Source: Bacteroidales bacterium
GTDB taxonomy: Bacteria > Bacteroidota > Bacteroidia > Bacteroidales > WCHB1-69
Reading direction: 5' to 3'
NCBI GenBank assembly: GCA_045116675.1
Contig: JBGUMF010000063.1
Coordinates: 1-59,764 of the forward strand
Length of the DNA: 59,764 bases
The translations under genes were made by a program, and so were the position numbers. The stretch's first letter is position 1; every line of letters begins with the position of its first letter. Under the pieces are notes generated by a model, which worked only from the letters and a program-made list of their open reading frames with translations, did no database searches and was not told the DNA's origin. Shown in pieces: positions 762-43,751 of this stretch.

Positions 762-920
762 GAACCCCGTAGGGGTTCCCTCTCTGTAGCACATTGCGTC
801 CCGACGATTTCCGCAGAACCCCGTTAGGGGTTCCATCTCGGTAGAAAGAAGATGGTATTGCGTGTTTCCCATATCCCCGTAGGGGATGCAGCTCGATAGC
901 CTGGGATGATTATCCTCGGG
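762..920 (+). repeat. REP-like array A: three units of [CCCC-GTA-GGGG hairpin + ~8 nt + GTAG] plus a terminal hairpin
   Basis: Units at 762-789, 816-844 and 873-899 (period 54-57 bp); 859-919 aligns closely with 41981-42041. Confidence 0.8.
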
Positions 921-1096
921 AAAGATGGCGTGTGCCGCAACGCAAACGCAGGTGTCAGAGATACTACATCTTTTTAACCCCAGATGAGCGTAGCGCGCCA
1001 CCACAGCTACGCACCTTTGCTTTTTTGAACATCAGCCATTGTATTGTCGGCGGGTACGGGGAACATGCACAATTCGTTCAATCCGCGTTCCAGAAC

Positions 1097-2185
1097 CTAA
1101 AATGCTCTTACTGCACGAACAGCCACTTCTTTGTTTTTTTTCTCACCCGATTGTGATCCACCACAGCTGATATTGATTGCCTCACAATAATTATTTTCAG
1201 AACTACTCCAATACCATTCCTTATCAATAGGATCTCCACCGGCATAAACAAGTGCCGCATTCAGCAAACCTTTTTTGTTTGCCTCAAATATCAATAATAA
1301 TTCGCATGAATTAGGAAGATACCATCCTTCACCATGTGATACACACCATTCTGCTGCAGGGGCATCACTTTTGCCTATTTGTCGGATAATAGCAGCAGTA
1401 TTTTTTTGTCCAGCCCCATAGATACACTCATTTTCATCACCATCATTAGGCAATTCCCAAATATCATGACATCCTTTAGCTTGCTTCTCATCCTCCCACT
1501 TGAGACTTGCTTCATCTAACGATACGGCAAGCCCATGATTGTCTTTTCCCGTATAAAAAACTATTCCCATTGTTCCATCAGGAAATGTTTTCACAGGAAA
1601 AGAAGATTGAGAAGATTCTTGTATGTTAGATGGATTCTGCGGACGTGATTGGACTTGTTGCGTAGGAGATGTAGTTGTAACTGAGGCTACATATGATTGA
1701 GGAGATGAAATCCCCAACAACTTATTAGCAAGGACTTCACACCCATGCTGAATGTCTGACGGTGCTGTGCTTGTCAAAGCATTATCTGTTGCTTCCATTT
1801 TGGCAGTTTCAACATTTAAAATTTTTGCAGTAATGAAAATATTTTGTTCATCAACATTTACTGCCTCCGCCACTAGTATATATTGAGCTCCTGTAATTTT
1901 TCCAAGCCTTTTGATATCTTCATCACTAACCATGCCTGTACGTTGAAAAGTCTGCTCATCCGATATCTGCTTCATATCGGTACGATCGTAACCTTCATAC
2001 CCAGGCGTATTGGTAATAACTTTGGCAAGGTTGCTTCGTATCATCAACTTGATGGCATACGACACATTTCCGTTTTTGTCAACGGTTTCCAATATGGCCA
2101 CTTTCTTGGTTTGTGCAAAAGCCGTCATCGATAAGAGTGACAGCAATACAATAAGAATTGATTTGATTTTTGCGTTTTTATTCAT
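1097..2185 (-). CDS. Secreted protein: CsgG/LpoB-like N-terminal domain, S/T/Q linker, DUF1566/Lcl-like C-type-lectin-fold C-terminal domain
   Basis: Signal peptide ending AFAQ; EQTFQRTGMVSDEDIKRLGKITGAQY; WYLPNSCEL, YWSSSE and VRAVRAF motifs. Confidence 0.7.
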   Translation of the reverse strand: MNKNAKIKSILIVLLSLLSMTAFAQTKKVAILETVDKNGNVSYAIKLMIRSNLAKVITNTPGYEGYDRTDMKQISDEQTFQRTGMVSDEDIKRLGKITGAQYILVAEAVNVDEQNIFITAKILNVETAKMEATDNALTSTAPSDIQHGCEVLANKLLGISSPQSYVASVTTTSPTQQVQSRPQNPSNIQESSQSSFPVKTFPDGTMGIVFYTGKDNHGLAVSLDEASLKWEDEKQAKGCHDIWELPNDGDENECIYGAGQKNTAAIIRQIGKSDAPAAEWCVSHGEGWYLPNSCELLLIFEANKKGLLNAALVYAGGDPIDKEWYWSSSENNYCEAINISCGGSQSGEKKNKEVAVRAVRAF

Positions 2186-2222
2186 TATTTTTACAAATTG
2201 TAATTATTATGCGGATTTGTTA

Positions 2223-3302
2223 TCACTGTCCTTGTATCCACGGTTTGATTTCATTCCAAACTTTAGAGGCTGCCAGTTTCAAGGCATTGCGGCCGGCACT
2301 TTCGTACGTTGCCACATCACCATTATTCTTTTCGCTCACCTGACCGTTATAAACCTGTTTTCTCTTATAGTTGCTAAAAACTTCCACCTCCACATCGGCA
2401 TAGGAGAATTTGAAGGTGCCGTCGCCGAAAGCCACATTTCCCTCATGTTGGCGAGTGGTGGCTGTAATCGTGATTTTGAAATCAGCCTCGTCAGGATCCT
2501 CGGCAAAACTGCACTGCTCTTTGGCGAGAATACGTTTCATCTCAGGTTCCAGTATGCGCACTGGTTGCCCGAAATTCGTTTCGGAGCACTGCAAATAGAT
2601 GTAGATACTTTGCTCCAAGCTGGCAAGAGTTTGAAAAAGTTCCTTTTTCAGGCGGAAAAGCTGATGCAATCTCATGCCTGTTGTGTCACCGGGACAAACG
2701 GCGGTGAGCAGGTCTTGAGCGAACTCAATTTTCGCTAATGGTTGTAGTGCGTCTTCACATGCTTTCCGAGCCTTTGCTTTCTGTCTGTCGTTAACGAAAG
2801 TGGCAGACAACGCAAGTGCATTCTCCAATTGCTGGAGTTGCAAGGCAATTTGCGCTCTATAGTAAGTTGCAAGCTCTGTTTTCTTCACATAGGCGAATGC
2901 ATAACCCCATTTCCGTCCTTCGTCATAGTAGGGTTCGGTGTGGATGCTAGCAATGTCGGCCTGCACCGATTGACGAGTATAGTCCTGATAGACAGAGGTG
3001 AACTGAAAATCTTGAACGTAGGTCTCCTGCCGGTCCGTCTTCTCCACCACCGAATGGATGAGGGTTCGAATGCTACCCGCTGCCCCACGTTTGGCATCCG
3101 ACTTCAGCCGATCTAACAAGGCGGAAACGTTCTCATTGGGGCGGAGATTCCCTTCGGTGAACTCCGAGAAGTACGCTGTTGTCGGATATTCCATTTCACG
3201 CACGGCGGGTGAAAGCCACGCGGGAGGTGGCGTTTGTGCCGACAAGCTTAATGGAATGCAACCCATTAACACCAAGATGAATATTTCAATGTTTTTTCTC
3301 AT
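2223..3302 (-). CDS. Secreted LPP20-like hypothetical protein
   Basis: Signal peptide; PAW motif followed by the AK..AA.SI...I.S helix pattern of LPP20-like domains; 359-aa ORF. Confidence 0.55.
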   Translation of the reverse strand: MRKNIEIFILVLMGCIPLSLSAQTPPPAWLSPAVREMEYPTTAYFSEFTEGNLRPNENVSALLDRLKSDAKRGAAGSIRTLIHSVVEKTDRQETYVQDFQFTSVYQDYTRQSVQADIASIHTEPYYDEGRKWGYAFAYVKKTELATYYRAQIALQLQQLENALALSATFVNDRQKAKARKACEDALQPLAKIEFAQDLLTAVCPGDTTGMRLHQLFRLKKELFQTLASLEQSIYIYLQCSETNFGQPVRILEPEMKRILAKEQCSFAEDPDEADFKITITATTRQHEGNVAFGDGTFKFSYADVEVEVFSNYKRKQVYNGQVSEKNNGDVATYESAGRNALKLAASKVWNEIKPWIQGQ

Positions 3303-3371
3303 AATTTGTTTGTTGTTTATCGTTTGCCCGCAGACCTACGGCCTGCGAACGAGACCCGGGTTCCCCATTTG

Positions 3372-3452
3372 CTACCGAGCTGTCGCCCCTAACGGGGCTT
3401 GGGGGCGTGGTGGCGTACCCTGTTCTACCGAGCTGTCGCCCCTTGTGGGGCT
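3372..3452 (-). repeat. REP-like array B: two near-identical units CTACCGAGCTGTCGCCCCT(AAC/TGT)GGGGCT
   Basis: Copies at 3372-3399 and 3425-3452 (period 53); inverted relative to array A. Confidence 0.85.
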
Positions 3453-3510
3453 GGGAGGGGAACGAAATCCTACGGTTTTGCTGTGATTTTCTCCCTGACG
3501 GAGTCTTCGC

Positions 3511-3588
3511 AGTCCGTTAGGACTGCAGGACTCGGTAGGGTGTGGTGTTGTGGGTGGGTGTGTCGCACGCCGTCAGGTGTGCGGGCAT
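3511..3588 (+). repeat. REP-like array C (subfamily 2), reverse-complement homologue of 43677-43751
   Basis: Reverse complement reads ATGCCCGCACACCTGACGGCGTGCG...CTACCGAGTCCTGCAGTCCTAACGGACT. Confidence 0.8.
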
Positions 3589-3600
3589 CCATCCCCTCGG

Positions 3601-5064
3601 TTAGAACCGCAACGACAGCCCCGCACCAAATGTGTTGTTCCCGCCGTAATATGGGGTAACTTGCCAAGAAACGGTGCGCTGGTCGCCGTTGATGTAGTAA
3701 TTGTAGCTTTTCTTCAAAGGATGGTTGAGACAACACAATTGTATCAAACCTGTTACCATCATAGGGAGTCCGGCTACCCAAATTCCTGTCCAATCAGTAT
3801 TATCCTCCCAGAAATCGTATCTATGAAAAGTCACTGTAGTGCCAGATATGTAATAAGAATCAGCTCGTATTGCAGCCTCAAGTGCAAAATCATAATAATA
3901 ATTAGGATGGGAGTGATTTCTACAATAATCTTCAAATGTAGAGTAGGAGAAGTTGTCAAAGTCGTAGTCTGGGAATTCCGCACGTTTGTATACCTTTTCG
4001 TCGTGGCCAGCTATACCTTGCGCTATAATACCACCTATAAAAAATCCAGTTCCAATAGAAAGAATTACAGCTCCCGAAATCATATTTGCCTTATACGACC
4101 GATACTTCTTATACGCCAAACTGTTGATCTCAAGAAATCCTCCTTTTTCCTTGATTACTTTTTTTTTGTAGTCTTTGAATCCATCCTTGAATTCCGAGCT
4201 TGCTTGTTCCTTTTCTGCCCTTGCATCCGTTCTTGCTCTTTCTTTTTCCGCTCTGACTTCGGCTACTGTGAGGTTGCCACTCTGTTGGGAGGACACGTCA
4301 GACCTTTCAGGCTGGGTCGGCACATTAGAGGGAGCCTTTTCAGACTTTGGTGTTGTTTCCGTTTGAGCAGGACTATCAGAAGACAAATCAGATGATTTTG
4401 GTGCTGTTTCACGCTGGATAGTGACATCCGATTTTGGCGATGCCTCCTGCTGGGTCGGAACATCAGAAGTGGTCTTGGCTTGTTTAGGTTTTTCCGAAGG
4501 TATGGTTGGGGTGACAGGTGCCGCCTTCGTTTTTATGGAAGCAGCCATCATATTGTTCAAGGCCCTATCCAACGTTTGTGTCAAAAGGGGGATGTTGTTG
4601 GATTTGTAATTGCTCACTTGTGCATCGCCGGACTCATAGGAGGTTTTAGTAGCCACATCCACAATACGGGTAGCGATATAGAGGTATTTTTCGATAATTG
4701 TTATGCTCACCACACAGATTTTCTGTGCACCCAATCCGGCACCAATTTCGGCAATCTGACCATCGGCCACCTCCCCCGACTGTTGCATAACCTGCTCATT
4801 CTGAATCTGCCGCAAAAACTCGTTAGAACGCTCTATCAACCGATAGTTACCTTCTCCTGTGAGCTTGGTGATGGTCTTGTTCTGCACCACCGTCAACAAG
4901 GAGGTGGATATCGGCTGGTCGTTCTGCAAACCTGTAGCATACACAGCCAGGTTGTAACGCTCGTTGTCGCCCGTGGTTTGGGCGAGGATGGTATTTGTCA
5001 AACTAGCCAAAAAGGAAAGCATCAGAAAGAGCAGCGTTTTTTTTGAAATGATTCTTTTCATCAC
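3601..5064 (-). CDS. Secreted or outer-membrane protein: CsgG/LpoB-like N-terminal domain, Pro/Ser/Thr repeat linker, hydrophobic C-terminal region ending in Phe
   Basis: IERSNEFLRQIQNEQVMQQSGEVADGQIAEIGAGLGAQ motif; C-terminal GAGLSLRF. Confidence 0.65.
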   Translation of the reverse strand: MMKRIISKKTLLFLMLSFLASLTNTILAQTTGDNERYNLAVYATGLQNDQPISTSLLTVVQNKTITKLTGEGNYRLIERSNEFLRQIQNEQVMQQSGEVADGQIAEIGAGLGAQKICVVSITIIEKYLYIATRIVDVATKTSYESGDAQVSNYKSNNIPLLTQTLDRALNNMMAASIKTKAAPVTPTIPSEKPKQAKTTSDVPTQQEASPKSDVTIQRETAPKSSDLSSDSPAQTETTPKSEKAPSNVPTQPERSDVSSQQSGNLTVAEVRAEKERARTDARAEKEQASSEFKDGFKDYKKKVIKEKGGFLEINSLAYKKYRSYKANMISGAVILSIGTGFFIGGIIAQGIAGHDEKVYKRAEFPDYDFDNFSYSTFEDYCRNHSHPNYYYDFALEAAIRADSYYISGTTVTFHRYDFWEDNTDWTGIWVAGLPMMVTGLIQLCCLNHPLKKSYNYYINGDQRTVSWQVTPYYGGNNTFGAGLSLRF

Positions 5065-5105
5065 TAATTACTAACTACTAATTACTAACTACTAATTACT
5101 AATTA
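5064..5105. repeat. Heptamer tandem repeat CTAA(T/C)TA x6 filling the intergenic gap
   Basis: ctaatta ctaacta ctaatta ctaacta ctaatta ctaatta. Confidence 0.9.
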
Positions 5106-5786
5106 TCAGAACCCTAACAACTTATCCAACTCTTTAGATAACTCATCTCCTCTCTTCTCCAACTCCTCCTTCGCAGCCTTCTTGGCGGCTTGGATGGCCA
5201 TCTCGCCGTTGTACATGATCATCACCATCACCTCATAGTTCTTGTTCTTGAGTTCGCGATAACATTCCACCACGGTAATCACGCGGCCGATAGATTGGGC
5301 GATTACCTGCTTGGAAACTTGAACGGAATTGGAGATCGCCACAGCCTCATCCTTGCCCAACTCTTGATTTGCCAGCCGTTCCTCTATGATGGCACCCACC
5401 TCGGTTTGTATGTTGCCGGCGAGCTCTGTCTTCGCGTCCGCCATGGCGTGCATCTTGGCAGCATCATAACTGGAGCTGATGGCCTTGCCATTACCTTTGA
5501 TGTATTTGGGCATATTGTTGTTCATGTCCAACTCATACTGCATCGTATAAGATTTTTCCAACTGCTTTGCAATTGGAAGCGAGCCAACGGTTACTTTCCA
5601 ACCCTCTTTGGCATACTTCTTGGCCATCTTTTTGACCTCTTTAGACACTTTTTCGTCACGTTCTTGCTTCACCAATTTCTGAACGGCCTTGCGCTCTTTG
5701 ATAAAGGCTTTGTAGTCGTCGGCGTTTTGGGCAGAAACCACGCCAGCCATGAGCAGGCTCATGAACATAATTGCTAACTTTTTCAT
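5106..5786 (-). CDS. Conserved Bacteroidales LPP20-like secreted protein
   Basis: Signal peptide; KEGWKV..GSLPI.KQLE and Y.AAK..A...AK.ELAG.I.T.V motifs. Confidence 0.7.
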   Translation of the reverse strand: MKKLAIMFMSLLMAGVVSAQNADDYKAFIKERKAVQKLVKQERDEKVSKEVKKMAKKYAKEGWKVTVGSLPIAKQLEKSYTMQYELDMNNNMPKYIKGNGKAISSSYDAAKMHAMADAKTELAGNIQTEVGAIIEERLANQELGKDEAVAISNSVQVSKQVIAQSIGRVITVVECYRELKNKNYEVMVMIMYNGEMAIQAAKKAAKEELEKRGDELSKELDKLLGF

Positions 5787-5852
5787 TTTTATTCTTTTTT
5801 ATGCCGTTCCGCGGACTCCCTGCGCGGAATCTTTATTGTTGATTGTCAAACC

Positions 5853-6113
5853 ACGACATAAAAAAAGCGCGGGAATCTGAACTCATCTCTCATCCCGCTT
5901 CTGTAGGCCTTCGCATTGCCTTCCAACCGAGAATAAGCAATGCCGAAGCCCACGCTGTATGCATATAAATGGATATACACAAACCAGGGACATTGAACAT
6001 TGCCTTACCGTGCGGTTGGAAATGAATTTGCGAAGTCCACAGAAGCCGCAGATAAGACGTTGACTCAACGCCTTTTTATATGTCGTTTTTCTACAGATAG
6101 ATGTAGAAAAACG
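5853..6113 (-). ncRNA. Candidate long structured 5' leader (cis-regulatory RNA) of the LPP20/CsgG operon
   Basis: Perfect 12-bp hairpin at 6084-6113; long imperfect inverted repeat pairing 5853-5942 with 5998-6086; promoter box directly upstream. Confidence 0.55.
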
Positions 6114-6116
6114 GTG

Positions 6117-6124
6117 CAAAAGTA
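6117..6124 (-). promoter_or_regulatory. Bacteroidota -7 promoter box TACTTTTG
   Basis: Matches the TAnnTTTG consensus, oriented toward the 5106-5786 gene. Confidence 0.7.
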
Positions 6125-6199
6125 CAAAAAATAAAAAATGAATGCAGAAAAAAGTTTTGTCCGCATCAACGTGCAACATGTTACCTTATGGCATTCCCT

Positions 6200-6889
6200 T
6201 CAGAACCGTGTCCCCAGGCCCACATTGAGCAGGCCTTTGTAGCCGTAACCTAACTCCACCGTGCCGTATACCCGCTTGCCGAAGCGTACGCCCAAAATGG
6301 TAAGCTGGAACGCAGGCCCCGCCGTTATGGCGATGGTACCATCGTGTTTGGTGGTCTCCATACGCAGTTTGGCCCCGAGAGAGATGCCGGAATACAGGTC
6401 GGTAATCCCTTTGTGGAAATAGTTAAAGCGAACCGCCCCCAGCATATACAGGTTTGTAGTCAGAAAATATTCGTATGTTTTTCCCTCCCAGGTTTTTTCC
6501 GTTGTACATAATGACATGGTGGAAATCTCTGCCCCGACTTGCAGCCAGCGTAGCACTTGGTTGTAGTAAGCCACCGTCACGGGAAATAAGATCCACTCGT
6601 CCTCATACCCGCTGTACGGACCGCCCAAATAGGGCCGGTAGGTGCCCGCCCAGCTATGGAAGCGCTCTTCCGCCTCCGGGCTGTGGTCCACAAACATCGT
6701 GTTCAGTCCCCAGGCACTGGACAGCGGCTCGCCGACCTGCAACTCTATGTGGTGGCGATATGATGGCGTTGTGGAGGAGGTTTGCGCCACGGACGGCAAG
6801 TATGTAACTGCCAAAAATAGAATGGCAATAAAAATAACGCTTCCCTTATAATGAAACAATCTTTCTATGGTGAAATGTTTTTTCATCAT
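6200..6889 (-). CDS. Small outer-membrane beta-barrel protein
   Basis: Signal-like N-terminus; amphipathic strands; LYSG..LG, FQ....G.RFG and ELGYGYKG motifs; terminal RF; start taken at ATG 6889. Confidence 0.75.
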   Translation of the reverse strand: MMKKHFTIERLFHYKGSVIFIAILFLAVTYLPSVAQTSSTTPSYRHHIELQVGEPLSSAWGLNTMFVDHSPEAEERFHSWAGTYRPYLGGPYSGYEDEWILFPVTVAYYNQVLRWLQVGAEISTMSLCTTEKTWEGKTYEYFLTTNLYMLGAVRFNYFHKGITDLYSGISLGAKLRMETTKHDGTIAITAGPAFQLTILGVRFGKRVYGTVELGYGYKGLLNVGLGTRF

Positions 6890-6962
6890 GATGGCATTAT
6901 TATGATTGTAATCCGTTAATGAACTACCGAGCTTTAGCCTCTGACGGGGCTGGTTCAAGAAC

Positions 6963-7011
6963 AATTATCAATTATTAATTATTAATTATTAATTATTAAT
7001 TATTAATTATA
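6963..7011. repeat. Heptamer tandem repeat (AATTATT) x7
   Basis: Five perfect and two one-mismatch units immediately after the nadA stop codon. Confidence 0.9.
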
Positions 7012-7926
7012 TTAACTCATCTCCAACATCCGCTGTATCGGCACCAGTGCCTGTTTGCGTAGTTCCTCGTCCATCAGCAGCTCGGGCTGTTCGGTGAGCA
7101 GGGCGTTATAAATGTTCTCCAAGTTGTTCTTCTTCATGTTCACGCAGTCGCGTTCCGGTTGGCCGGGGTAGAGGGTGTATAATATCTTGTCGGGATTGCG
7201 GCGCTGCATCTCGTACAGGATGCCACTCTCGGTCACTACGATGAACTCCTTGACTTCGCTTTCGCCAATGAAGTTGAGCATGGCGGCGGTGGAGCCGATG
7301 AAATCGACCTGCTCCAGCATTTCGCGGCGACATTCGGGGTGCGCCACCACCAACGCCTCGGGATGCTCGGCCTTCATCTTCTCCAACTGCTCCACCTCGT
7401 AATGGTCGTGTACGCAGCATGCGCCGTCCCATAACAGCATCTCGCGTCCCGTCATCCGGTTGATGTAGTCGCCCAAGTTGCCGTCGGGCACGAAGATGAT
7501 CTTCTCGTCTTCGGGCAGCTGGTTCACCAACTTCAGCGCGTTGCCGGAGGTGACGATGAGATCGGAGAGGGCCTTCACCGCTGCACTGCAGTTAACGTAT
7601 GACAGCACCTTGTAGCCCGGGTGTTTGGCCTTGTATTCCGCTAATTTCTCCGCCTTGCAGCTGTCTGCTAATGAGCAGCCCGCGCTCATGTCGGGCACCA
7701 GCACCTTCTTGGTGGGGTTGAGGATCTTGGCGGTCTCGGCCATGAAATGCACGCCGGCAAAGAGGATGATGTCGGCGTCCGTTTCGGCAGCCTTGCGCGC
7801 CAGTCCCAGACTGTCGCCCACGAAGTCGGCCACCTCCTGCACTTCCGGCAGGGTGTAGTAATGTGCCAGGATGATGGCGTTCTTTTCTTTCTTTAATGTC
7901 TCAATTTCTTGCTTTAAATTGTTCAT
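7012..7926 (-). CDS. nadA: Quinolinate synthase
   Basis: ILAHYY, GVHFMAETAKILNP, AGCSLA, YVN, AHPEC motifs and three Fe-S cysteines. Confidence 0.97.
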   Translation of the reverse strand: MNNLKQEIETLKKEKNAIILAHYYTLPEVQEVADFVGDSLGLARKAAETDADIILFAGVHFMAETAKILNPTKKVLVPDMSAGCSLADSCKAEKLAEYKAKHPGYKVLSYVNCSAAVKALSDLIVTSGNALKLVNQLPEDEKIIFVPDGNLGDYINRMTGREMLLWDGACCVHDHYEVEQLEKMKAEHPEALVVAHPECRREMLEQVDFIGSTAAMLNFIGESEVKEFIVVTESGILYEMQRRNPDKILYTLYPGQPERDCVNMKKNNLENIYNALLTEQPELLMDEELRKQALVPIQRMLEMS

Positions 7927-7941
7927 AACTATATTTTGTGA

Positions 7942-10418: not shown

Positions 10419-10421
10419 TCT

Positions 10422-11813: not shown

Positions 11814-11837
11814 AGTGTGTTCTTTTTTTATCGGGCG

Positions 11838-33013: not shown

Positions 33014-33040
33014 AATATTTAGATCTTAAAAAAAAACGTT

Positions 33041-33180: not shown

Positions 33181-33194
33181 TGTATACTCCATTT

Positions 33195-35913: not shown

Positions 35914-35944
35914 CTTGTTCATTATCAAAAAAAATGTATCTTTG
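35914..35944 (+). promoter_or_regulatory. rplS promoter (-33 CTTG, -7 TATCTTTG)
   Basis: 19-nt spacing between the boxes, matching the Bacteroidota sigma70 consensus. Confidence 0.7.
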
Positions 35945-35983
35945 CACCCGCAAAAAAGATAATAACAGAAAAGATATAGAGAG

Positions 35984-36337
35984 ATGAAACAAGAACTGAT
36001 TCAATACGTTGAGGATAATTTCATTCCCAAACAGGAATTCCCGAAATTCAAAGCAGGTGATACGGTTACCGTATCGTACAGAATTGTGGAAGGCTCCAAA
36101 GAGCGTATCCAGCAATTCCAGGGTGTTGTGCTGCAAATCAATGGCAATGGCGCCACCAAGACCTTCACGGTGAGAAAAATCTCCGGAGGTATCGGTGTTG
36201 AGAGAATATTCCCCTTCGCCACCCCGATGATTGCCGGTCTTACGGTGAACAAACGCGGTGTTGTGCGTCGCGCCCGTATTTTCTACCTTCGTAACCTCAC
36301 GGGTAAGAAGGCTCGTATCAAAGAACGCAGAGGTTAA
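35984..36337 (+). CDS. rplS: 50S ribosomal protein L19
   Basis: [32 protein letters not shown]. Confidence 0.98.
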
Positions 36338-36360
36338 TAATTATCAATATTAAGGTTTAT

Positions 36361-36390
36361 AAAACCTCTCTTTCGGGAGAGGTTTTTTTT
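36361..36390 (+). terminator. Intrinsic terminator of rplS, abutting the next gene's TATCTTTG box (36392-36399)
   Basis: AAAACCTCTC-T-TTCG-G-GAGAGGTTTTTTTT. Confidence 0.85.
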
Positions 36391-36420
36391 GTATCTTTGC
36401 AGTCGTAAATTTTATTTGCA

Positions 36421-37212: not shown

Positions 37213-37300
37213 TTTTTAGAGACTAAGAAACATTAAAAACATTTTAAAAACTTTTCCTCGTTGAAATTTTAAATCTTTAACCTTTATAACTTTTACCGAA

Positions 37301-37711
37301 ATGAACATCACACACATTGAACACATCGCCATCGCGGTGAAGAGCTTGGAAACATCGATTCCGTATTATGAGAACATCCTCGGACTCAAATGCTACAACA
37401 TCGAGGAAGTGGCCGACCAGAAAGTGAAGACGGCTTTTTTCAAGGTGGGGCAGACCAAGATTGAACTTTTGGAGCCCACTTGTGAGGAGAGCACAATTGC
37501 CAAGTTCTTGGAGAACAAGGGCGAGGGCTTGCATCACGTGGCTTTTGCCGTTCCCGACACGGGTGCCGCTTTGAACGAGCTGGCCGAGAAGGAAGTGCGC
37601 CTCATCGACAAGGCTCCGCGCGGTGGTGCGGAAGGTCTGCTGATCGGCTTCGCGCACCCGAAGGCCACGGGTGGCGTGCTGACTGAGTTCTGCTGTCCGA
37701 AACCCGAATAG
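37301..37711 (+). CDS. mce: Methylmalonyl-CoA epimerase
   Basis: IEHIAIAV, KIELLEP, GEGLHHVAF, GAEG..IGF.HPK.TGGVL.E. Confidence 0.95.
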   Translation: MNITHIEHIAIAVKSLETSIPYYENILGLKCYNIEEVADQKVKTAFFKVGQTKIELLEPTCEESTIAKFLENKGEGLHHVAFAVPDTGAALNELAEKEVRLIDKAPRGGAEGLLIGFAHPKATGGVLTEFCCPKPE

Positions 37712-37720
37712 TTTTTCCGT

Positions 37721-38650
37721 ATGATGAATAGAAAGCTGTGGGGCGTCTGCCTGAAATGGGGGCTGGTGCTGGGTGGTGTGCTGGCTGTGCTGGAGGTGGT
37801 CAAAATGGTGGCCCGCCAAGTGGAGTATGGCTCTGCCCAGCTGTTCGACCTTGCCATGATTATCGGCTATATCCTGATTCTCTATGCCGGTATCAAGGAG
37901 TTCAAGGCGTCATATCCCAACCGGCTGTCGTTCCCCAAAGCCTATTTGTGCGGTTTCCTACTCTCTATCATCGGCTCTGTTATTTTCTTTGGCTATAATT
38001 TGATTCATTATCAAGTAGTTGAAAAGGACGGCTTGTCAAGGAAATACAACACGGCCTTGGAGAATTTCCGTAAGGTCATTGACAAGGATACCATTCGGGC
38101 GGATGAGTTGACGTGGTATGTGGATACTGTGCGTGTGCTGGTGGAAGCGGCAGAAAAAGACTATCTGCAGCAGAACCCTCGTACCGATTCCGTGGAAATG
38201 GATGTGCATAAGGGCGTATCGCTGATTAACACATATTTTGCGGAAAAGGTCGAGTCGCGGCGTTCGTCGGATACCACCGACCATTACCGGATGTCTAATT
38301 TTGCTCCATACGCGAAGGGCGTGATGGTGGAGACGTTGCAGCTCTATATTGCCCAGAATGAAAAGCATGTGTCCACTTCGGATGTGAAGGAGATTGTGCA
38401 GCGGGCTATGGTCAACATAGGTCCGGTCAATCCCGCGCAACGTCGTTTCGAGCTGAACAAGTCGCACGTGCCGCACTACGACCATGCGGTCACGTACGCG
38501 TCCGTGGCCGCGCTTATGGACCTGCTGTACGGCATGTTTTTCAGCATCTTTGTGGCCATGTACCATTACCGCTCTAAAGAACCAGCTCCGGAAGAGGAAG
38601 AAGCTGAACCAACGGAACCGAATGAGGCGGAGGAGATTCCTGAACCGTAA
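37721..38650 (+). CDS. DUF4199-like membrane protein with a long soluble insertion
   Basis: Three N-terminal TM helices, LSF.KAY..G, one C-terminal TM helix; sits directly upstream of a GT2. Confidence 0.6.
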   Translation: MMNRKLWGVCLKWGLVLGGVLAVLEVVKMVARQVEYGSAQLFDLAMIIGYILILYAGIKEFKASYPNRLSFPKAYLCGFLLSIIGSVIFFGYNLIHYQVVEKDGLSRKYNTALENFRKVIDKDTIRADELTWYVDTVRVLVEAAEKDYLQQNPRTDSVEMDVHKGVSLINTYFAEKVESRRSSDTTDHYRMSNFAPYAKGVMVETLQLYIAQNEKHVSTSDVKEIVQRAMVNIGPVNPAQRRFELNKSHVPHYDHAVTYASVAALMDLLYGMFFSIFVAMYHYRSKEPAPEEEEAEPTEPNEAEEIPEP

Positions 38651-38674
38651 TTTATTTATTATTAGAATGATAAT

Positions 38675-39637
38675 TTGAATGATATGAATATTTCTGTAAT
38701 TGTCCCCCTTTTGAATGAATCCGAATCCATCCCCGAATTGGTGGCATGGATCAAACGTGTCATGGATGAGCACCAGTACACCTATGAAGTGCTGATGATT
38801 GATGACGGCTCCACCGACAATTCCTGGGCTATCATTGAGGAGCTCCACCAGCAGAATCCGAATGTGAAAGGCATCCGTTTCCGCAGAAACTATGGCAAGT
38901 CGGCGGCGCTCAACACCGGCTTCGAGGCCTGTGAGGGTGATGTGGTCATCACGATGGACGCCGACCTGCAGGACAGCCCCGACGAGATTCCCGAGCTCTA
39001 CCGCATGATTGTGGAGGATGGCTATGATCTGGTTTCCGGCTGGAAGAAGGTGCGCTATGATTCCAAATTGGCGAAAAATATCCCGTCCAAGTTCTTCAAC
39101 TGGACCACTCGGAAGATGTCGGGCATCCAGCTGCACGATTTCAACTGTGGGTTGAAAGCTTACCGCAAGGATGTGGTAAAATCCATTGAGGTGTATAGCG
39201 AGATGCACCGTTACATTCCGGTGATAGCCAAGTGGGCTGGTTTCAGCAAGATAGGGGAGAAGGTGGTGATTCACCAGAAGCGCAAATATGGAGTCACCAA
39301 ATTCGGATGGAACCGTTTTGTCAACGGGTATCTGGACCTGCTCACCATTTCCTTCACCACACGTTTCGGCAAGAAGCCCATGCACGCTTTCGGTGTGTGG
39401 GGCAGTGTGGCCTTTTTAGTGGGCTTGGTGAGTGCCATCTGGCTGATTATCGCCAAATTGGTCCATCAGGCACACGGAATGCCCTTCCGTCAGGTGGCCG
39501 ACCAACCGTTGTTCTTCATCGCTTTGTTGGCTATGGTGTTGGGTTTCATGCTGTTTTTGGCCGGATTCCTTGGCGAGTTGATTGCCCGCAATGGCTCCGA
39601 CCGCAACAAATATCTGATTTCTGACAGAATAGAATAG
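38675..39637 (+). CDS. GT2 polyprenol-phosphate glycosyltransferase (ArnC/GtrB-like)
   Basis: DDGSTD, RNYGKSAAL, TMDADLQDSP, HDFNCG, two C-terminal TM helices. Confidence 0.93.
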   Translation: MNDMNISVIVPLLNESESIPELVAWIKRVMDEHQYTYEVLMIDDGSTDNSWAIIEELHQQNPNVKGIRFRRNYGKSAALNTGFEACEGDVVITMDADLQDSPDEIPELYRMIVEDGYDLVSGWKKVRYDSKLAKNIPSKFFNWTTRKMSGIQLHDFNCGLKAYRKDVVKSIEVYSEMHRYIPVIAKWAGFSKIGEKVVIHQKRKYGVTKFGWNRFVNGYLDLLTISFTTRFGKKPMHAFGVWGSVAFLVGLVSAIWLIIAKLVHQAHGMPFRQVADQPLFFIALLAMVLGFMLFLAGFLGELIARNGSDRNKYLISDRIE

Positions 39638-39654
39638 TTTTAAAAAAGAGATTA

Positions 39655-41496
39655 TCACGGTTCCGCCTGCGTGACGATTCCATTTTCGTAAAAGTACTGG
39701 ATCAACTCCTGATAAAACGGGGTTTGTGAAAGTGTATCGCAGTTGCCCACGATGATGAGTTTCAGTCGGGCGCGGGTGATGGCCACGTTCATGCGCCTTA
39801 AATCCTTCAGGAAGCCGATGTTGCCCTGCTCGTTGTCGCGCACCATGCTGATGAGGATGATGTCACGTTCCTGTCCTTGAAAGCCATCCACAGTATTGAT
39901 GGCCAGGCGGTTTCGTATGGTGGCGAGGGTGCGGCTTTTGGCAGCCATGCGGCGCAGGATGCCCACTTGGGCCTTGTAGGGGGAAATGATGCCGAAGGTG
40001 GTGTTCTCCACCAGATTGCTATCCACGAACAGCTGCCGAACGTATGTCTTCAGGATGTTGAGGAGCAGATGAGCCTCGTCGCGGTTCAGGCGGCTTTGCG
40101 AGGCACTGGTGCGTTCCGAGAACTGGCAGCGGCTGGTGTCAATCCAAACCAAGGGCGCATCCCATGGGGCGAGGGTGCGATGGGCCACTTCCGGCGCGGC
40201 TTTCAGCTTGCCCTCGTAAAACCATCGGGACGAGAAGTTCATGATTTGCTCGTTCATGCGGTATTGGATGTTCAGCAGCGTGACGGCCCCGGGCTTTTCC
40301 TCCACAATCTTCTGCATCAGGGTTTTGCTCAATCCTCCGTTGGCCGCCTCCATGCATTTGATGGTAGGCGGGAGCTGCTGATGGTCGCCGGCGAAGACTA
40401 CGCGGTCGGCTTTGAAGATGGCGGCCCAGCAGGCAGCCTCCAAAGCTTGGCTGGCCTCGTCGATGAATACGGTGCCAAAGTGGCGGGCTGCCAGCACGGG
40501 GTTGGCACTGCCGATGAGGGTGCAGGTGATGACCTCGGCCTCTTGCAGGATATCCTCGCGGATGCGCTCCTCCAGTTCTTCCACACGATGGTGCAGACTT
40601 TGCAGGCGATGATGCTTGTCGGTGGTCTTGGACTGATGGATTTCGCGGATGAGCTTGCGCATAGCCCACAGGTCGCTGTAGTCGGGGTGCACCGAGTATC
40701 GGTATTCGTAGGAACATTCCAGGAGGGGCTTGTTGATGCGCAGCGGGTTGCCCACGCGCAGCACGTTGACGCCCCGGCGGAGCAGCAGCTCGCTGATCCA
40801 GTCCACCGCCGCGTTGCTGGGCGCGCACACCAGCACTTGTCCCTCCCGCAGTACCGTCTCGATGACGGCCTCTACGCATGTGGTGGTCTTGCCGGTGCCT
40901 GGCGGCCCGTGAACGACGGCCACCTCGCGGGCGCGAACAATCCGGTTGACGGCCTCGTTCTGGCTGGCATTGAGATTCGGGAAATGCAGGGCAGGCAGTT
41001 CCCGGAAGGCGGGTTGTGTCTTGCCTGTCAGCGTGTCGCGCAGATGTACCCATTTCTCACCGTCGCGGTCCATGACCCGCTGCAAGGTGGCTTCCATTAC
41101 CTCGTAGGTGGTCTCGTCGATGCCCAGTTGTACGCCCAACTCGTGCTGCTCCGCCAAGCGTGCGAGCAGGGTAGGGAAGGTGATGTCGGGCACCGACACG
41201 ATCATCCGTTTTTGGTCGATGCGCTGGATGAAACAGCTTCCGGGCACCATAGTGAGGCTGTCGCGTTTGTCTTTTCCCGTGTAGAAGAAGGAGACGGACT
41301 TCCCTGGCTCGAAGGCACAATCGATGCTTATGCCGTATCCTCCCGTATATTCGATTTCCATCACCGTCTGGTTGAGGGCGTTATAGAATCCGATGCCTGT
41401 GTGAATGGGGAACCAGCTGCTCTCGGTGTTGTAATGCGAGGCCACCGCCGCCCGCATCGACAGTTCAAAAGTGCGACGGTCGTACTCCCGCTCCAT
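39655..41496 (-). CDS. Superfamily 1 helicase (UPF1/DNA2/IGHMBP2-like)
   Basis: HGPPGTGKTT, APSNAAVD, IDEASQ, GDHQQLPP, QYRM, TVDGFQGQE, RMNVAITRAR. Confidence 0.93.
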   Translation of the reverse strand: MEREYDRRTFELSMRAAVASHYNTESSWFPIHTGIGFYNALNQTVMEIEYTGGYGISIDCAFEPGKSVSFFYTGKDKRDSLTMVPGSCFIQRIDQKRMIVSVPDITFPTLLARLAEQHELGVQLGIDETTYEVMEATLQRVMDRDGEKWVHLRDTLTGKTQPAFRELPALHFPNLNASQNEAVNRIVRAREVAVVHGPPGTGKTTTCVEAVIETVLREGQVLVCAPSNAAVDWISELLLRRGVNVLRVGNPLRINKPLLECSYEYRYSVHPDYSDLWAMRKLIREIHQSKTTDKHHRLQSLHHRVEELEERIREDILQEAEVITCTLIGSANPVLAARHFGTVFIDEASQALEAACWAAIFKADRVVFAGDHQQLPPTIKCMEAANGGLSKTLMQKIVEEKPGAVTLLNIQYRMNEQIMNFSSRWFYEGKLKAAPEVAHRTLAPWDAPLVWIDTSRCQFSERTSASQSRLNRDEAHLLLNILKTYVRQLFVDSNLVENTTFGIISPYKAQVGILRRMAAKSRTLATIRNRLAINTVDGFQGQERDIILISMVRDNEQGNIGFLKDLRRMNVAITRARLKLIIVGNCDTLSQTPFYQELIQYFYENGIVTQAEP

Positions 41497-41888
41497 ACGG
41501 AGCAGACGGAGAAGGTGTAGGAAATGGTTTGTGATGTTAATAATGTTTATAATTTTACAGTGTTGCCGAGTCCAGTTTTAAATTGCTACGTCAGATAATC
41601 AGGTTCTGATTTTGCGGGGCAAAGGTAGTGATTTTTCATAAGGTGGCAATTTTGCAAAAATGATTTTCGGTTTACGATTTTCGATTGGCGATGCCCTGAA
41701 TGTTTTGGGAGATTCCGTTCAACGCTATTGAGTTTCGTGGAATGGTGCGTGTCCGCCATGCCAAGAATGCAGCGGCACAAGACTTTGGATTTCGGGATAG
41801 GCTGTCTGCCGCTGCATGGACAGCAGGTGCGATGTGCACCATTCCGCCGGTGACACCAGGAACGGCGAGATCCCCCTCTCATTCCAAC

Positions 41889-42041
41889 ATCCCGCAGGGA
41901 TAAAAGCCCGGTAGGACGGCGTTGTCCCATGGCCACCATGTCCCGCAGGGACAGAAGCTCGGTAGGAACAGGTGTCACAATGTGTGTTCCAAAATCCCCG
42001 TGAGGGGATGCATATCTGTAGCCGGGGATGACAATCCCCGG
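41889..42041 (+). repeat. REP-like array D: three hairpin+GTAG units plus a terminal hairpin
   Basis: Units at 41889-41914, 41939-41965 and 41994-42021, then CCGGGGAT-GACA-ATCCCCGG; homologous to array A. Confidence 0.82.
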
Positions 42042-42161
42042 TGTTGGATGTCGTGTGCGTATATGGGCGCGGCACGGGTTACGCGTGCGCAGATGACGTG
42101 AACGCGCATGCCGCGCAATGGCACGAGCGCGCGAAGAGGGGGAATATATTGAGATTTGGGG

Positions 42162-42192
42162 TTTGGGTGTTGTTGAAAAAACATTATCTTTG
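42162..42192 (+). promoter_or_regulatory. Consensus promoter of the mini-RHS gene (TTTG-N19-TATCTTTG)
   Basis: TTTG at 42162-42165 and TATCTTTG at 42185-42192, 18 nt before the ATG. Confidence 0.75.
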
Positions 42193-42210
42193 CCCACCGA
42201 ATAATCCGAT

Positions 42211-43023
42211 ATGAATCAGCGCATTACATATACCTGTTCCTCGTCTTCCCGCACCCTTGCGGAGATGTTCACCTTCTCCGCAAAAGAGAAAGACACTGAA
42301 ACGGGTTTTTCTTACTTTGGTTCAAGGTATTACAACAGTGATTTAAGCATCTGGCTCAGCGTCGATCCACAGGCTTCAAAATATCCTTCTTTGAGCCCGT
42401 ATAATTACTGTGCGAATAACCCCATCAAACTGATGGATCCGAATGGGGAAAAAATAATTCCTTTAAAGGCTTTTGTAAATTCAGCTTATAATAAAGTTTT
42501 TCAAAGTTTATCTCAGACGAACACATACCAACAGCTTCTTTCAAAGTATCAGGACAACACTCATGATTTTGTACTTGATTATAGCACAAAATACACATAT
42601 AAAGCAGGGAGCAACTATATGTCGTATAAAATAAAAGATGGTAAGATTACATATACGAAAGCTAATTCGATATATTATCGGCCTGAAGGAATAGAACAAA
42701 GTGAAATAGCTATGGTTCAAACGTTGCTTCACGAAGCGATTCATGCCGCAGATGGATTAACTCAACGTAAAACCCCGTACCATGATGGTTTTGATCAGGC
42801 TTCAGTGTTGGCTGGTCTTATAGAGTATAATTCCACTTTCAATTTGGGGTATTCAAATGAAGATTTAGAGATTTTGTCATGGAGTGGATTGCAGGAATCC
42901 GTGGAGTATTGTGATTTTATAGAACACAGGGCAGAAAAAAACAATCGTACCTTTGACGAAGAGGATAGTTATGTTAAATCAAGAATTACAATTATAACGG
43001 TGGGAGGAGATTTAGATGAATAA
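42211..43023 (+). CDS. Stand-alone RHS repeat-associated core with a C-terminal HExxH (zincin-like) toxin domain
   Basis: FSAKEKD.ETG.SYFGSRYY...WLSVDP...PYNYCANNPI...DPNG, then LLHEAIHA. Confidence 0.85.
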   Translation: MNQRITYTCSSSSRTLAEMFTFSAKEKDTETGFSYFGSRYYNSDLSIWLSVDPQASKYPSLSPYNYCANNPIKLMDPNGEKIIPLKAFVNSAYNKVFQSLSQTNTYQQLLSKYQDNTHDFVLDYSTKYTYKAGSNYMSYKIKDGKITYTKANSIYYRPEGIEQSEIAMVQTLLHEAIHAADGLTQRKTPYHDGFDQASVLAGLIEYNSTFNLGYSNEDLEILSWSGLQESVEYCDFIEHRAEKNNRTFDEEDSYVKSRITIITVGGDLDE

Positions 43024-43606
43024 AATAAAGAGAATAAGGTCAGTTTTATTATTTGTTTATTTGTTTACGTGTTCCGCAGCCTCAAATGCTCAACACTCAT
43101 TGTATTATGAGTTTGAATGCGATTATATAGATAATACATACATTTTCCCCATTCACAAGCATGGGGACTCTGTATTAATAGTGTCTGATTTATTCGAGGG
43201 GGAATTGGCCATTAAGGATGCTGTTGTTTTTAGATTTCAGGATAGTTGTGTGTTTCTAACTATTGATGGACAAGAGGGGCTTTTCTTTGGCAATTCGCAA
43301 AAAGGAAGTTGGATCACAAAAGGAAATGAATACGAGCGCTTTACCATTAGATGGGATAGTTTGTGTTGTTCCGACAATAATGATCCAATATACAAATTTG
43401 TGTTCACACCTTATTACAACGAAGAGAATCCGTATATAACAGATGATGGGACAATGATATTTCATGAGTATAATGATATGACATCCTATTATTGGACTAA
43501 TTCGGATGGCTTGATCGCCATCGAGGGAGATTGGCTTTTTGTAAGGAAGGATCAAGAAGCCCTCAAGCAATGCTTGTTAATGGCCAAACGATGTTCACAA
43601 CGATAA
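43016..43606 (+). CDS. Putative cognate immunity protein (exported)
   Basis: 8-bp overlap with the toxin gene, same AT-rich composition, Sec-type signal peptide ending ASNA-Q. Confidence 0.6.
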   Translation: MNKIKRIRSVLLFVYLFTCSAASNAQHSLYYEFECDYIDNTYIFPIHKHGDSVLIVSDLFEGELAIKDAVVFRFQDSCVFLTIDGQEGLFFGNSQKGSWITKGNEYERFTIRWDSLCCSDNNDPIYKFVFTPYYNEENPYITDDGTMIFHEYNDMTSYYWTNSDGLIAIEGDWLFVRKDQEALKQCLLMAKRCSQR

Positions 43607-43676
43607 TTTTGTAATTTCGCGGCGGAATGGATGAATACACCCGAACATATTGCCTGCAGATCCCGCCAATTTCGCT

Positions 43677-43751
43677 ATGCCCGCACACCTACGGCGTGCG
43701 TGTGTGCTCGCGTGCTGCCTTTGCTACCGAGCCCTGCAGACCTGCGGCCTG
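43677..43751 (-). repeat. REP-like array E (subfamily 2)
   Basis: ATGCCCGCACACCTACGGCGTGCG...CTACCGAGCCCTGCAGACCTGCGGCCTG matches the reverse complement of 3511-3588. Confidence 0.8.

Follow-up and report, generated by a model that had tools for sequence, protein, structure and literature searches.

The window, a stretch of 59,764 bp from the 2.49-Mb genome of an uncultured gut or rumen Bacteroidales bacterium (G000), contains two loci at which short extragenic repeats accompany cargo genes. The first is an island at 595-7011 between hslR (208-594), whose product has an S4 domain, and nadA (7012-7926), the identity of NadA being confirmed by PF02445. Its cargo on the minus strand includes a 362-aa gene of 39% GC (1097-2185), weakly Lcl_C-terminal-like (27.7 bits against a cut-off of 34.9), a 359-aa gene (2223-3302) for which no family was matched, and two genes for putative outer-membrane proteins or lipoproteins (3601-5064 and 5106-5786). 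For the latter pair we obtained a CsgG-like match that counts as no more than a lead (Atlas score 0.94) and an LPP20-like match of 17.6 bits, below cut-off; a paralogous cluster is present at G000:C6.

Three repeat arrays interrupt this island. Array A (760-921, plus strand) consists of units at 760-791, 814-846 and 870-901, the third terminating in ATAG, followed by a terminal hairpin (902-921); its units score 23.1, 44.8 and 25.7 bits with a covariance model. Array B (3329-3455, minus) combines a second-type palindrome (3329-3347) with units at 3370-3402 and 3423-3455 (45.3 and 37.7 bits), and array C (3508-3583, plus) joins one unit (3508-3540) through a GT-rich 23-nt spacer to a palindrome (3564-3583) of the form CGCACGCC-GTCA-GGTGTGCG. 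A further unit (6922-6954, minus, 40.3 bits) separates a 229-aa gene from the nadA stop codon.

The second locus is the interval between a helicase gene and rlmI. Here a 417-bp composite (41642-42058, plus) is built from a ~210-bp repeat (41663-41880), array D (plus; units 41885-41916, 41936-41967 and 41991-42023) and a terminal hairpin (42024-42041). Downstream are an orphan rhs-type toxin gene (42211-43023, plus), with the end of the RHS core at residues 16-79 (TIGR03696, 60.9 bits, cut-off 32.5) and a weakly SprT-like C-terminal domain (24.7 bits, below 25.6), and a 196-aa gene of 36% GC (43016-43606, plus) without family match, whose position makes it the putative cognate immunity gene. 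Array E (43682-43754, minus) comprises a palindrome (43682-43700), CGCACACC-TAC-GGCGTGCG, and one unit (43722-43754). Orphan rhs C-terminal toxin/immunity modules are accounted for by the C-terminal displacement model, and the window's module resembles them in the order of RHS core end, variable toxin domain and small gene. It differs in that the modules of this genome each start with an ATG of their own behind an AT-rich stretch, and in standing alone between two housekeeping genes, separate from the full-length RHS gene at C64. The genome holds ten orphan rhs toxin modules in addition to that gene, and tandem arrays of such modules occur in relatives.

A first-pass annotation of the window had described five arrays, and this observation is confirmed. 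All five were found where it had placed them, with periods of 51-56 bp and mutually unlike spacers; GTAG ends face inward at A/B and D/E, the final unit and terminal hairpin of array A align with those of array D, and array E aligns as the reverse-complement homologue of array C. Its claim that there were no further units fails at 6922-6954. Across the window the covariance model found no unit beyond this one and the arrays, but it misses the E/C subtype, leaving array E unreported and giving the C1 unit just 13.4 bits.

The units form a genuine REP family. Each measures 28-33 bp and consists of a GC hairpin whose stem covaries, ~8 nt and then CTCGGTAG; unit coordinates were set from the final G of GTAG with 2 nt added. 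The curated set comprises 48 units in 26 clusters, and the covariance model gave 49 matches genome-wide at E ≤ 10, 38 of them at E ≤ 0.01. Standard pairs occupy 86.4% of stem cells in 22 aligned units versus 67.1% in shuffles, with 0 of 500 shuffles reaching the observed pairing percentage or covariation score, and sliding the stem partner drops pairing to 30-48%. TAG is invariant in all 35 aligned units. GTAG was found 8 nt past perfect hairpins of 6 bp or longer in 30 cases versus ~10 at neighbouring offsets, and control tetranucleotides after hairpins gave no peak at the 8-nt offset.

The genome also encodes the cognate gene. The first-pass annotation had proposed from the form of the units that they would be substrates of an HUH Y1-type enzyme, and had suggested a search for a tnpA/RAYT gene accompanied by the same units; the proposal is supported by exactly one Y1_Tnp gene (95.2 bits) at G000:C40:2634-3107, IS200-like Y1/HUH with HVH and YIENQ motifs, directly downstream of five to six REP units. 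At 25 homologous transposase loci we obtained 167 model matches in the layout (-)n (+)n gene (-)n (+)n. At all 14 close homologous loci the nearest upstream units aim GTAG at the transposase gene, as do the downstream units in the 6 of these that possess them. The brackets around cargo therefore copy the arrangement at the transposase gene. Among 41 genomes of the genus, 37 have Y1 homologues and 37 have units, while the four genomes without a Y1 match contain 0, 1, 0 and 0 units (Fisher p = 0.0015, though related genomes are not independent). Three genomes (G017, G018 and G036) carry 39-77 units each, yet their Y1 homologue is only 32-35% identical. Overall, a REP/RAYT ("REPtron") system is present across the genus.

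Systems of this kind are known, but the geometry of the unit is unusual here. REP/RAYT (TnpA-REP) systems, reportedly the subject of work by Nunvar in 2010 (PMC2817692), share with it the short GC hairpin with conserved GTAG, dispersed extragenic copies that occur singly or in alternating-sense arrays, a Y1/HUH gene present once per genome with its repeats on either side, and co-occurrence of repeat and gene across genomes. Unlike them, the family here has a low copy number (~45-50) and its protein passes the NCBIfam IS200 model (73.1 bits, cut-off 55) and fails the NCBIfam REP-transposase model (28.2 bits, cut-off 80). IS200/IS605 elements and their miniature derivatives use the same transposase family, and the order of hairpin, ~8-10 nt and tetranucleotide presumably resembles the right end of IS200/IS605 elements; the gene here differs in being single-copy, and both it and the cargo are flanked by units in both senses. 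In canonical REPs, as far as the available text of Quentin 2018 (PMC6006769) describes them, GTAG lies 0-2 nt 5' of the hairpin foot, whereas here it lies ~8 nt 3' of the hairpin and abuts it only at the terminal hairpins of A- and D-type arrays. Inverted pairs and regularly spaced clusters, such as (-)(-)(+) at B/C and (-)(-)(-)(+)(+) at C40 and C73, recall the REPINs and BIMEs in the accessible part of Bertels and Rainey 2011 (PMC3116915), from which the many single-sense arrays here (A, D, C47, C98) depart.

REP clusters in this genome favour compositional borders. Fifteen of 21 touch a flank below 45% GC, compared with 18% of 845 intergenic gaps, and the GC step at REP clusters has a median of 0.119 versus 0.042 (p = 3e-5). 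The lower-GC flank lies on the GTAG side in 18 of 24 usable unit runs (binomial p = 0.023, Wilcoxon p = 0.0016), and inward-facing units bracket at least four low-GC segments: A...B, D...E, C43:2...1022 and C30:1695...3912. The bias on the GTAG side and the brackets at C43 and C30, together with the inward GTAG ends, as found around the transposase gene in relatives, and the variability of both loci, speak for the first-pass idea that A...B and D...E are non-autonomous cassettes, in which a RAYT would recognise inverted REP ends and move cargo and arrays in trans. Against it, IS200/IS605 transposition needs both ends on the same strand and in the same sense, which inverted units do not supply. 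Many arrays are one-sided, and a search for a partner array at the far edge of a low-GC segment found none in 8 places. In G041, a well-assembled congener, units sit in ordinary intergenic DNA and the orientation rule was not seen (30 runs versus 23, p = 0.41). The association with GC is weaker there: about one third of runs have a flank of less than 45% GC, a share that stands without a background for comparison. The scatter in G041 comes close to the randomly oriented intergenic pattern that the first-pass annotation had set against its own idea.

In Thauera sp. MZ1T, GTAG-1 REP arrays flank an EPS gene cluster, an arrangement that the authors, in the portion of Di Nocera 2013 (PMC3733652) available to us, read as expression control and not mobility; that case differs in phylum and REP type.

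Comparison with relatives shows the hslR-nadA interval to be a variable locus. In the congeners G012 and G014 just 3-5 bp separate the two stop codons, an empty site of the sort that the first-pass annotation had suggested looking for. Among 16 metagenome relatives the gap measures 29-59 bp in four (L177, L179, L180, L184), and it has different cargo in L170 and L181-L183. Against the close relative G052, whose core identity to G000 is ~89%, the island is a mosaic: identity is 99.8% at 586-2246, 79-88% at 2247-3200 and ~100% at 3531-3886. The 362-aa cargo protein is 100% identical in G052, and the 359-aa gene is just 79-88% identical to its counterpart. The near-identical tract starts from the stop codon of hslR, some 170 bp before array A, includes that array and stops in the spacer between these two cargo genes, not at array B, both units of which G052 has with altered loops. 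The 359-aa gene pairs with the next gene (3601-5064) in three other loci, and arrays B and C sit within this conserved pair; they are missing from the three other copies, where the spacer is 100-160 bp versus 298 bp here. Unit 6922-6954 is missing at the same place in G052, whereas a similar unit adjoins nadA in L171.

The helicase-rlmI interval is likewise a variable locus, the bay in G052 containing other cargo. Helicase-side homology with G052 stops at 41636. In contigs of runs X5 and X9 exactly 41642-42058 is skipped (41641 joined to 42059), with helicase and leader kept, and the ~210-bp repeat of this composite has 16 matching places in G052. The cassette (42175-43700) recurs with 97.6% identity at a different locus, G052:C2:3054-4582, and four runs, each of a different study, have it at 98-99% identity beside flanks of 90-99%. 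Its homology with G052 begins ~36 bp 5' of the ATG and stops at the palindrome 43682-43700; arrays D and E fall outside the common stretch. No REP unit was found in 14 kb at the G052:C2 site with a model that misses array E's type.

Cargo and arrays thus change independently of each other. At the second of the two loci known for the rhs cassette, the one case of its kind, no unit was detected; the near-identical G052 tract includes A but does not end at B; a conserved gene pair encloses B and C; and D and unit 6922-6954 each form a separate indel. The metagenome loci point the same way, L174 having a REP unit after hslR but no cargo, and L176 and L181-L183 having cargo but no unit reported by the model or by a noisy motif scan. 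Most of the evidence thus contradicts the cassette idea, which is unproven and which we consider very improbable; the first-pass interpretation as a whole is partly supported.

Alternatively, REP clusters could be causal exchange borders, serving as portable homology or Y1 break hot spots, so that an inward pair stays and foreign DNA is inserted or swapped between its members. The G052 bay, which has inward-facing units at both its helicase and rlmI borders around cargo unlike that of G000, agrees with this, as do the units that follow hslR on the same side and in the same sense in L169, L170, L174 (where cargo is absent) and L175, or precede nadA in L171. The GC steps at REP clusters also fit, and inward-facing pairs just 70-120 bp apart in G041 would be 'empty bays'. 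However, the left exchange tract begins outside array A, at the hslR stop codon, and the border arrays are themselves unstable. Neither model nor motif scan reported a unit in the cargo-holding gaps of L176 and L181-L183, the motif scan being no better than its reversed control, and the GC association weakens in G041. We regard a causal border role as rather unlikely.

The rhs cassettes might instead move in an integron-like or rAID-like manner, with a Xer-like recombinase acting at the palindrome after the immunity gene and the REP units as bystanders. The Xer-like tyrosine recombinase gene G000:C76:2409-3533 is 245 bp from the first cassette and divergent from it. In G052, the site at C2 sits between orthologues of G000:C76 (including the recombinase) and G000:C61, and the window's cassette is the first beside the recombinase gene. 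The palindrome at which cassette homology stops recurs after cassettes in G001, G052 and G000:C61, and the array E element recurs between cassettes in G001. Bacteroidales rAID-1 arrays, in the available text of bioRxiv 10.1101/471110, combine a XerD-family recombinase with skewed GC and integron-like intergenic repeats. As far as that preprint and the accessible part of PMC12247911 describe rAID-1, G000:C76/C61, though not the window, shares a layout of tyrosine recombinase, short low-GC genes and repetitive intergenic motifs in Bacteroidales, a likeness of layout. The rAID-1 recombinase is co-oriented with its array in the same partial text of bioRxiv 10.1101/471110, whereas ours is divergent, and cassettes here hold toxin plus putative immunity, not immunity alone. 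Moreover, the palindrome also occurs away from cassettes (C6, C32, C102, window 3329 and 3564), the left end of cassette homology is not at a palindrome, and a recombinase is absent near the window's cassette. Such a route is quite improbable as the main one.

We lean towards the reading that REP/RAYT units accumulate at the borders of fast-changing loci, where cargo turns over by other routes. IS200/IS605 TnpA and E. coli TnpA-REP bind a hairpin plus tetranucleotide on single-stranded DNA, cut it and rejoin it. By analogy, we infer that the Y1 enzyme acts in this way on the hairpin and tetranucleotide of the units. One by one or as short arrays, units would be gained, lost and multiplied in non-coding DNA. 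In this genome they have piled up at low-GC, fast-changing borders, namely those of the hslR-nadA surface/secretion island and the helicase-rlmI rhs bay. Cargo would turn over by homologous recombination with other lineages, a route that we infer as well; in rhs cassettes, 5' crossovers may fall in the conserved promoter and RHS-core module and 3' crossovers near the conserved palindrome, and the Xer-like recombinase beside the main cassette array may assist.

Plain colonisation by units does not predict the low-GC bias on the GTAG side (18/24 runs). The inward brackets around at least four low-GC segments and around the transposase gene of relatives also count against this reading, as do the many units of G017, G018 and G036 beside so distant a Y1 homologue. 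Finally, the G052 bay keeps inward border units while its cargo differs, with which a border role in exchange fits as well.

The window spans all of contig C63, in a 51% GC genome assembled as 106 contigs totalling 2.49 Mb. All five arrays of the REP-like hairpin unit are where the first-pass annotation had placed them: A at 760-921 (+), B at 3329-3455 (-), C at 3508-3583 (+), D at 41885-42041 (+) and E at 43682-43754 (-). Each unit is composed of a hairpin of 5-7 pairs with C-G inner pairs and a 3-4 nt loop, mostly G...A, followed by 7-9 bases and then GTAG, commonest within AGCTCGGTAG; the TAG is invariant in 35/35 aligned units. The likeness reported for A and D was recovered, as both close with a unit ending in GCAnnnCTGTAG and a second hairpin directly after it, and C and E are indeed one composite in opposite senses (unit, ~23 nt and the palindrome CGCACGCC-GTnA-GGTGTGCG). 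The claim that the window holds no other units failed on a further one, 6922-6954 (-), which adjoins the stop codon of nadA. Using 22 units with a 4-nt loop and a 7-pair stem, we found 86.4% of stem cells paired versus 67.1% in shuffles, 31 stem cells altered on both sides and four pairs double-changed, each in 4-10 sequences; none of 500 shuffles reached the observed pairing or covariation score, and sliding the 3' partner lowered pairing to 30-48%. The covariation together with the pairing loss on sliding indicates that the hairpin is maintained as a structure: like a REP, the unit is a short GC-rich hairpin under selection. Single-unit DNA folds at -5 to -8 kcal/mol, and the E unit folds weakly (z = -0.69).

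The covariance model of the unit, R1, was trained on 22 of the 35 aligned units, all with 4-nt loops, and replaced an earlier nhmmer iteration that had yielded 37 units. The genome-wide scan that had been proposed returned 49 places at E <= 10 and 38 at E <= 0.01, with 10 inside the window. R1 misses the C/E subtype, so that its 0 matches in 22 relatives' loci and 2 in 16 metagenome loci are undercounts. Curation of the R1 matches, with the E unit and one unit on contig C15 added, gave 48 units in 26 clusters. As in REPs, the copies are many, dispersed and mostly intergenic; a weak match at C41:1291 sits within a long ORF, and the copy number is below the >100 typical of classical REPs. A looser motif scan did not outperform the reversed sequence used as its control (33 vs 40 matches; 2 vs 8) and was used solely as a pointer to sequences then inspected by eye.

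The published definition of a canonical REP places GT[AG]G 0-2 nt 5' of the hairpin foot (PMC6006769), whereas in these units GTAG follows the hairpin on its 3' side after 7-9 nt, which sets them apart; GTAG abuts a following hairpin solely at the ends of A- and D-type arrays. The available text of the same source states atypical flanking structures for Bacteroidetes REP subclasses. Rfam holds no family for the units. We rejected a reading as terminators: the units carry no T-run, and a consensus scan of 41400-44000 gave one terminator-like site, off the arrays. On a map read informally by eye, unit orientation followed no consistent rule relative to the transcription of neighboring genes. An identical stretch of ~85 bp, containing an AACGCC-type unit and a GC-rich second hairpin, terminates four contigs (the end of C14 and the starts of C30, C43 and C67); it is therefore common to two loci and a breakpoint of the assembly.

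A single gene in the genome matches Y1_Tnp (PF01797, 95.2 bits): a 157 aa ORF at C40:2634-3107. HVH and YIENQ motifs are seen in its translation, and the protein can be aligned to the ISDra2 and IS608 TnpA chains of solved structure (E = 9e-5 to 2e-3), consistent with the Y1 HUH fold and motifs of a RAYT. Three minus-sense and two plus-sense units lie directly upstream, in this genome on that side only; the gene is single-copy and flanked by its own REPs, as RAYT genes are. A transposase gene beside the same units, which the annotation had suggested looking for, therefore exists. 'Bacteroidales bacterium' MAGs from rumen and gut encode homologues at 73-95% identity, and R1 gave 167 matches on 25 homologous Y1 loci. 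The nearest upstream units aim GTAG at the Y1 gene in 14/14 close loci; in the 6 of these 14 that have units on both sides, the nearest downstream units likewise aim GTAG at the gene, with outward-facing ones beyond. This layout in relatives corresponds to the REPtron layout in the available text of Quentin et al. (PMC6006769). The protein passed the NCBIfam IS200 model NF033573 (73.1 bits, cut-off 55) and failed REP_Tyr_transpos NF047646 (28.2 bits, cut-off 80). Among 41 genomes of the genus, 37 have a Y1 homologue and 37 have units, and the four without a homologue hold 0, 1, 0 and 0 units. The link is imperfect: G044 combines a homologue of 55% identity with 0 units, and G017, G018 and G036 carry 39-77 units, yet their homologues are only 32-35% identical.

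Arrays D and E flank an rhs cassette in the helicase-rlmI interval. The ORF at 42211-43023 carries the end of an RHS core at residues 16-79 (TIGR03696, 60.9 bits) and then a variable domain; downstream of it is a low-GC gene (43016-43606) whose 196-aa product is, by position, a putative immunity protein. In this make-up the 42211-43606 pair is an orphan rhs toxin module with a putative immunity gene. The genome contains 10 rhs modules, and a full-length RHS gene, encoding no fewer than 2844 aa, lies on C64. Relatives have tandem rhs module arrays in which every module is preceded, at 45-80 bp, by a unit or E-like element oriented oppositely to the cassette. The matches listed in a literature search for RAYT together with Rhs orphans include none naming RAYT.

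In assembled contigs of four runs from four studies the cassette is 98-99%, the helicase 90-97% and rlmI 92-99% identical, and in one run, X2, overlapping contigs lead from the cassette across E and enter rlmI. The stretch 42300-43750 is 98-99% identical in four animal-gut runs, and the neighboring housekeeping genes 90-97% in three. These identities hint at a recent spread of the toxin/immunity cassette. No empty helicase-rlmI site was found in the covered parts of the 4 runs, all of which contain the cassette, or in 30 genomes searched, where relatives matching both genes have them on different contigs. Different cargo, another outcome the annotation had asked after, does occur. In G052, a close relative, two units lie 83 bp past the end of the helicase homology (window 41636) and face a gene with a Fib_succ_major domain and a 494-aa gene. 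Toward rlmI lie a ~210-bp repeat, two inward units and a cassette leader like that on C30, after which the contig ends. In the window this ~210-bp repeat lies upstream of array D at 41663-41880; our genome has 2 copies, the other at C92:13242-13381, and G052 has 16 matches, several adjoining REP units. Repeat, array D and terminal hairpin together form a 417-bp indel, as contigs of runs X5 and X9 join 41641 to 42059. The repeat may be a separate miniature mobile element.

The first-pass annotation had proposed that A...B and D...E are REP-bounded cassettes moved in trans by a Y1 transposase, cargo and arrays together. Such a cassette should be found at two sites with its arrays attached and homology ending at the units. 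The rhs cassette (42175-43700) does occur in G052 at another locus, C2:3054-4582, at 97.6% identity, and its flanks there are orthologues of C76:671-4013 (86%) and C61:1723-10773 (89%); R1, however, found no unit in G052:C2:1-14000. The shared homology sets in ~36 bp ahead of the ATG and tapers off at the palindrome at 43682-43700, leaving array D and the E unit outside. IS200/IS605 transposition also requires both ends on the same strand and in the same sense, a requirement with which the strict cassette model fits poorly.

In the hslR-nadA interval, the second variable locus, hslR (S4 domain) and nadA (PF02445) are convergent, with stop codons 3-5 bp apart in G012 and G014. Among 16 metagenome loci with hslR DNA 86-90% identical, the gap measures 29-59 bp in 4, 225-930 bp in 4 and 1.4-4.2 kb with other genes in 4, so the whole of 595-7011 is accessory, beyond the genes at 1097-3302 alone. 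The expectation of empty or differently filled sites was therefore borne out, with the empty ones known in species only 75-90% identical; relative to these, the extra DNA overshoots array A by ~165 bp and the unit at 6922 by 57 bp. A C/E-type unit follows hslR in L169, L170, L174 and L175 and an R1-type unit precedes nadA in L171, each in the same sense as in the window; L174 has the unit and lacks the cargo. Conversely, L176 and L181-L183 have cargo in the gap with no unit reported by R1, which misses the C/E type, and the looser scan. The genes at 2223-3302 and 3601-5064 are adjacent in the paralogous cluster on C6 and in G018 and G003, with spacers of 100-160 bp; their spacer in the window measures 298 bp because it contains B and C. 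The gene cluster at 3601-5786, with CsgG-like and LPP20-like leads, is duplicated at C6:115-3149 and also present in G002, G003, G017 and G018.

G052, with a core identity of ~89%, carries the same island at the same site. Identity is 99.8% (4 differences) over 586-2246, 79-88% over 2247-3200, 91-94% over B and C, without differences over 3531-3886 and ~100% over 4201-5000 and 5601-6200. The 99.8% tract extends from the hslR stop codon through array A and the gene at 1097-2185, whose product is 100% identical, to the 37-bp spacer before the next gene. The mosaic identity over 586-6800 suggests recent recombination. The unit at 6922 is absent from G052 between the same neighbors. The gene at 2223-3302 is the most diverged part of 586-6800 relative to G052:C25, perhaps through diversifying selection on a surface protein.

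The repeat family and its Y1 gene are established, as is the variability of both loci. Arrays and cargo are gained and lost independently, and the sole cassette seen at two loci moved without detectable arrays; we therefore read the arrays as REP clusters, not cassette ends. REP clusters would gather at long, tolerant non-coding edges of exchanged DNA, cargo would move by recombination with other lineages, and rhs cassettes would recombine via their conserved 5' module and 3' palindrome.

That the arrays themselves act as exchange borders is a less probable reading. In our genome a flank with GC under 45% adjoins 15/21 usable clusters, compared with 18% of 845 gaps between genes (Mann-Whitney p = 5e-7), and the GC step across clusters is 0.119 versus a background of 0.042 (p = 3e-5). 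The lower-GC flank is on the GTAG side in 18/24 usable runs, five runs at contig ends being excluded (binomial p = 0.023), and in 12/17 when rhs-linked loci are removed (p = 0.14). Further inward brackets lie at C43:2...1022, around a gene for 214 aa with 30% GC, and at C30:1695...3912, around an rhs cassette. The near-identical tract shared with G052 over 586-2246 is not bounded by arrays. In 8 places where a low-GC segment has units on one side, no partner unit of the family was found at its other end. In G041 (99% complete, 20 contigs), all 59 R1 matches at E <= 0.01 make 53 runs, of which 30 have higher GC on the hairpin side and 23 lower (p = 0.41; mean difference 0.009), and many lie between two high-GC flanks. 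The orientation bias of our genome was thus not seen in G041, and the orientation rule is not general.

A more specific version appears improbable to us: that inward REP arrays and a Y1 enzyme mark fixed 'cargo bays' between housekeeping genes, where low-GC accessory genes such as rhs cassettes and surface proteins are swapped and the hairpins are break or exchange points, not travelling ends. If true, domesticated RAYTs would take part in the turnover of accessory genes. A Thauera EPS cluster is an earlier case of genes with GTAG-REP arrays on their flanks, an arrangement that its authors read as regulatory (PMC3733652).

What role REPs and their single-copy transposases play in the host is an open question in the field, and the present system offers a small, tractable REP family (~50 copies) with unusual tail geometry in an uncultured gut or rumen Bacteroidales. 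In this one genome, units cluster at the edges of horizontally exchanged DNA, interbacterial toxin cassettes included. Were the border association to extend across the genus, it would tie REP/RAYT systems to the turnover of accessory genes; as the evidence stands, it is specific to this genome and cargo moves without repeats, so the practical value is modest. What the genome provides is a clean Bacteroidales REPtron example, two well-defined variable loci and an rhs cassette that two close relatives carry at different loci.

Recombination of rhs cassettes at their palindromes might alternatively be the work of an Xer-like recombinase, as has been proposed for rAID-1 arrays (10.1101/471110), an option to which we give lower odds. 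A tyrosine recombinase gene lies at C76:2409-3533 (locus L126; PF00589, 81 bits), divergent from and 245 bp away from the first of two or more rhs-type cassettes; the contigs C76 and C61 probably join. The arrangement resembles rAID-1 or an integron. The window contains no tyrosine recombinase. A paralogue of the C76 recombinase, 42% identical, is encoded at C72:42832-43932.

A second palindrome family, CGCAC(A/G)CC-loop-GG(C/T)GTGCG, is often coupled with a REP unit. It occurs in the window at 3329-3347, 3564-3583 and 43682-43700 and elsewhere at C6:4140, C32:21803, C61:1377, C102:14974 and C102:15253; with a weaker variant at C29:14 there are 9 sites in the genome and 0 in a reversed-sequence control. 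Simple-sequence stretches lie near gene ends at 620-720, 5060-5105 and 6960-7010 (e.g., GTGATCAGTGAAC, ACTAATTACTAAC and AATTATT repeats). Many members of the genus have short matches to them at 85-97% identity, and comparable low-complexity runs stand ahead of units on C14, C67, C64 and C4.
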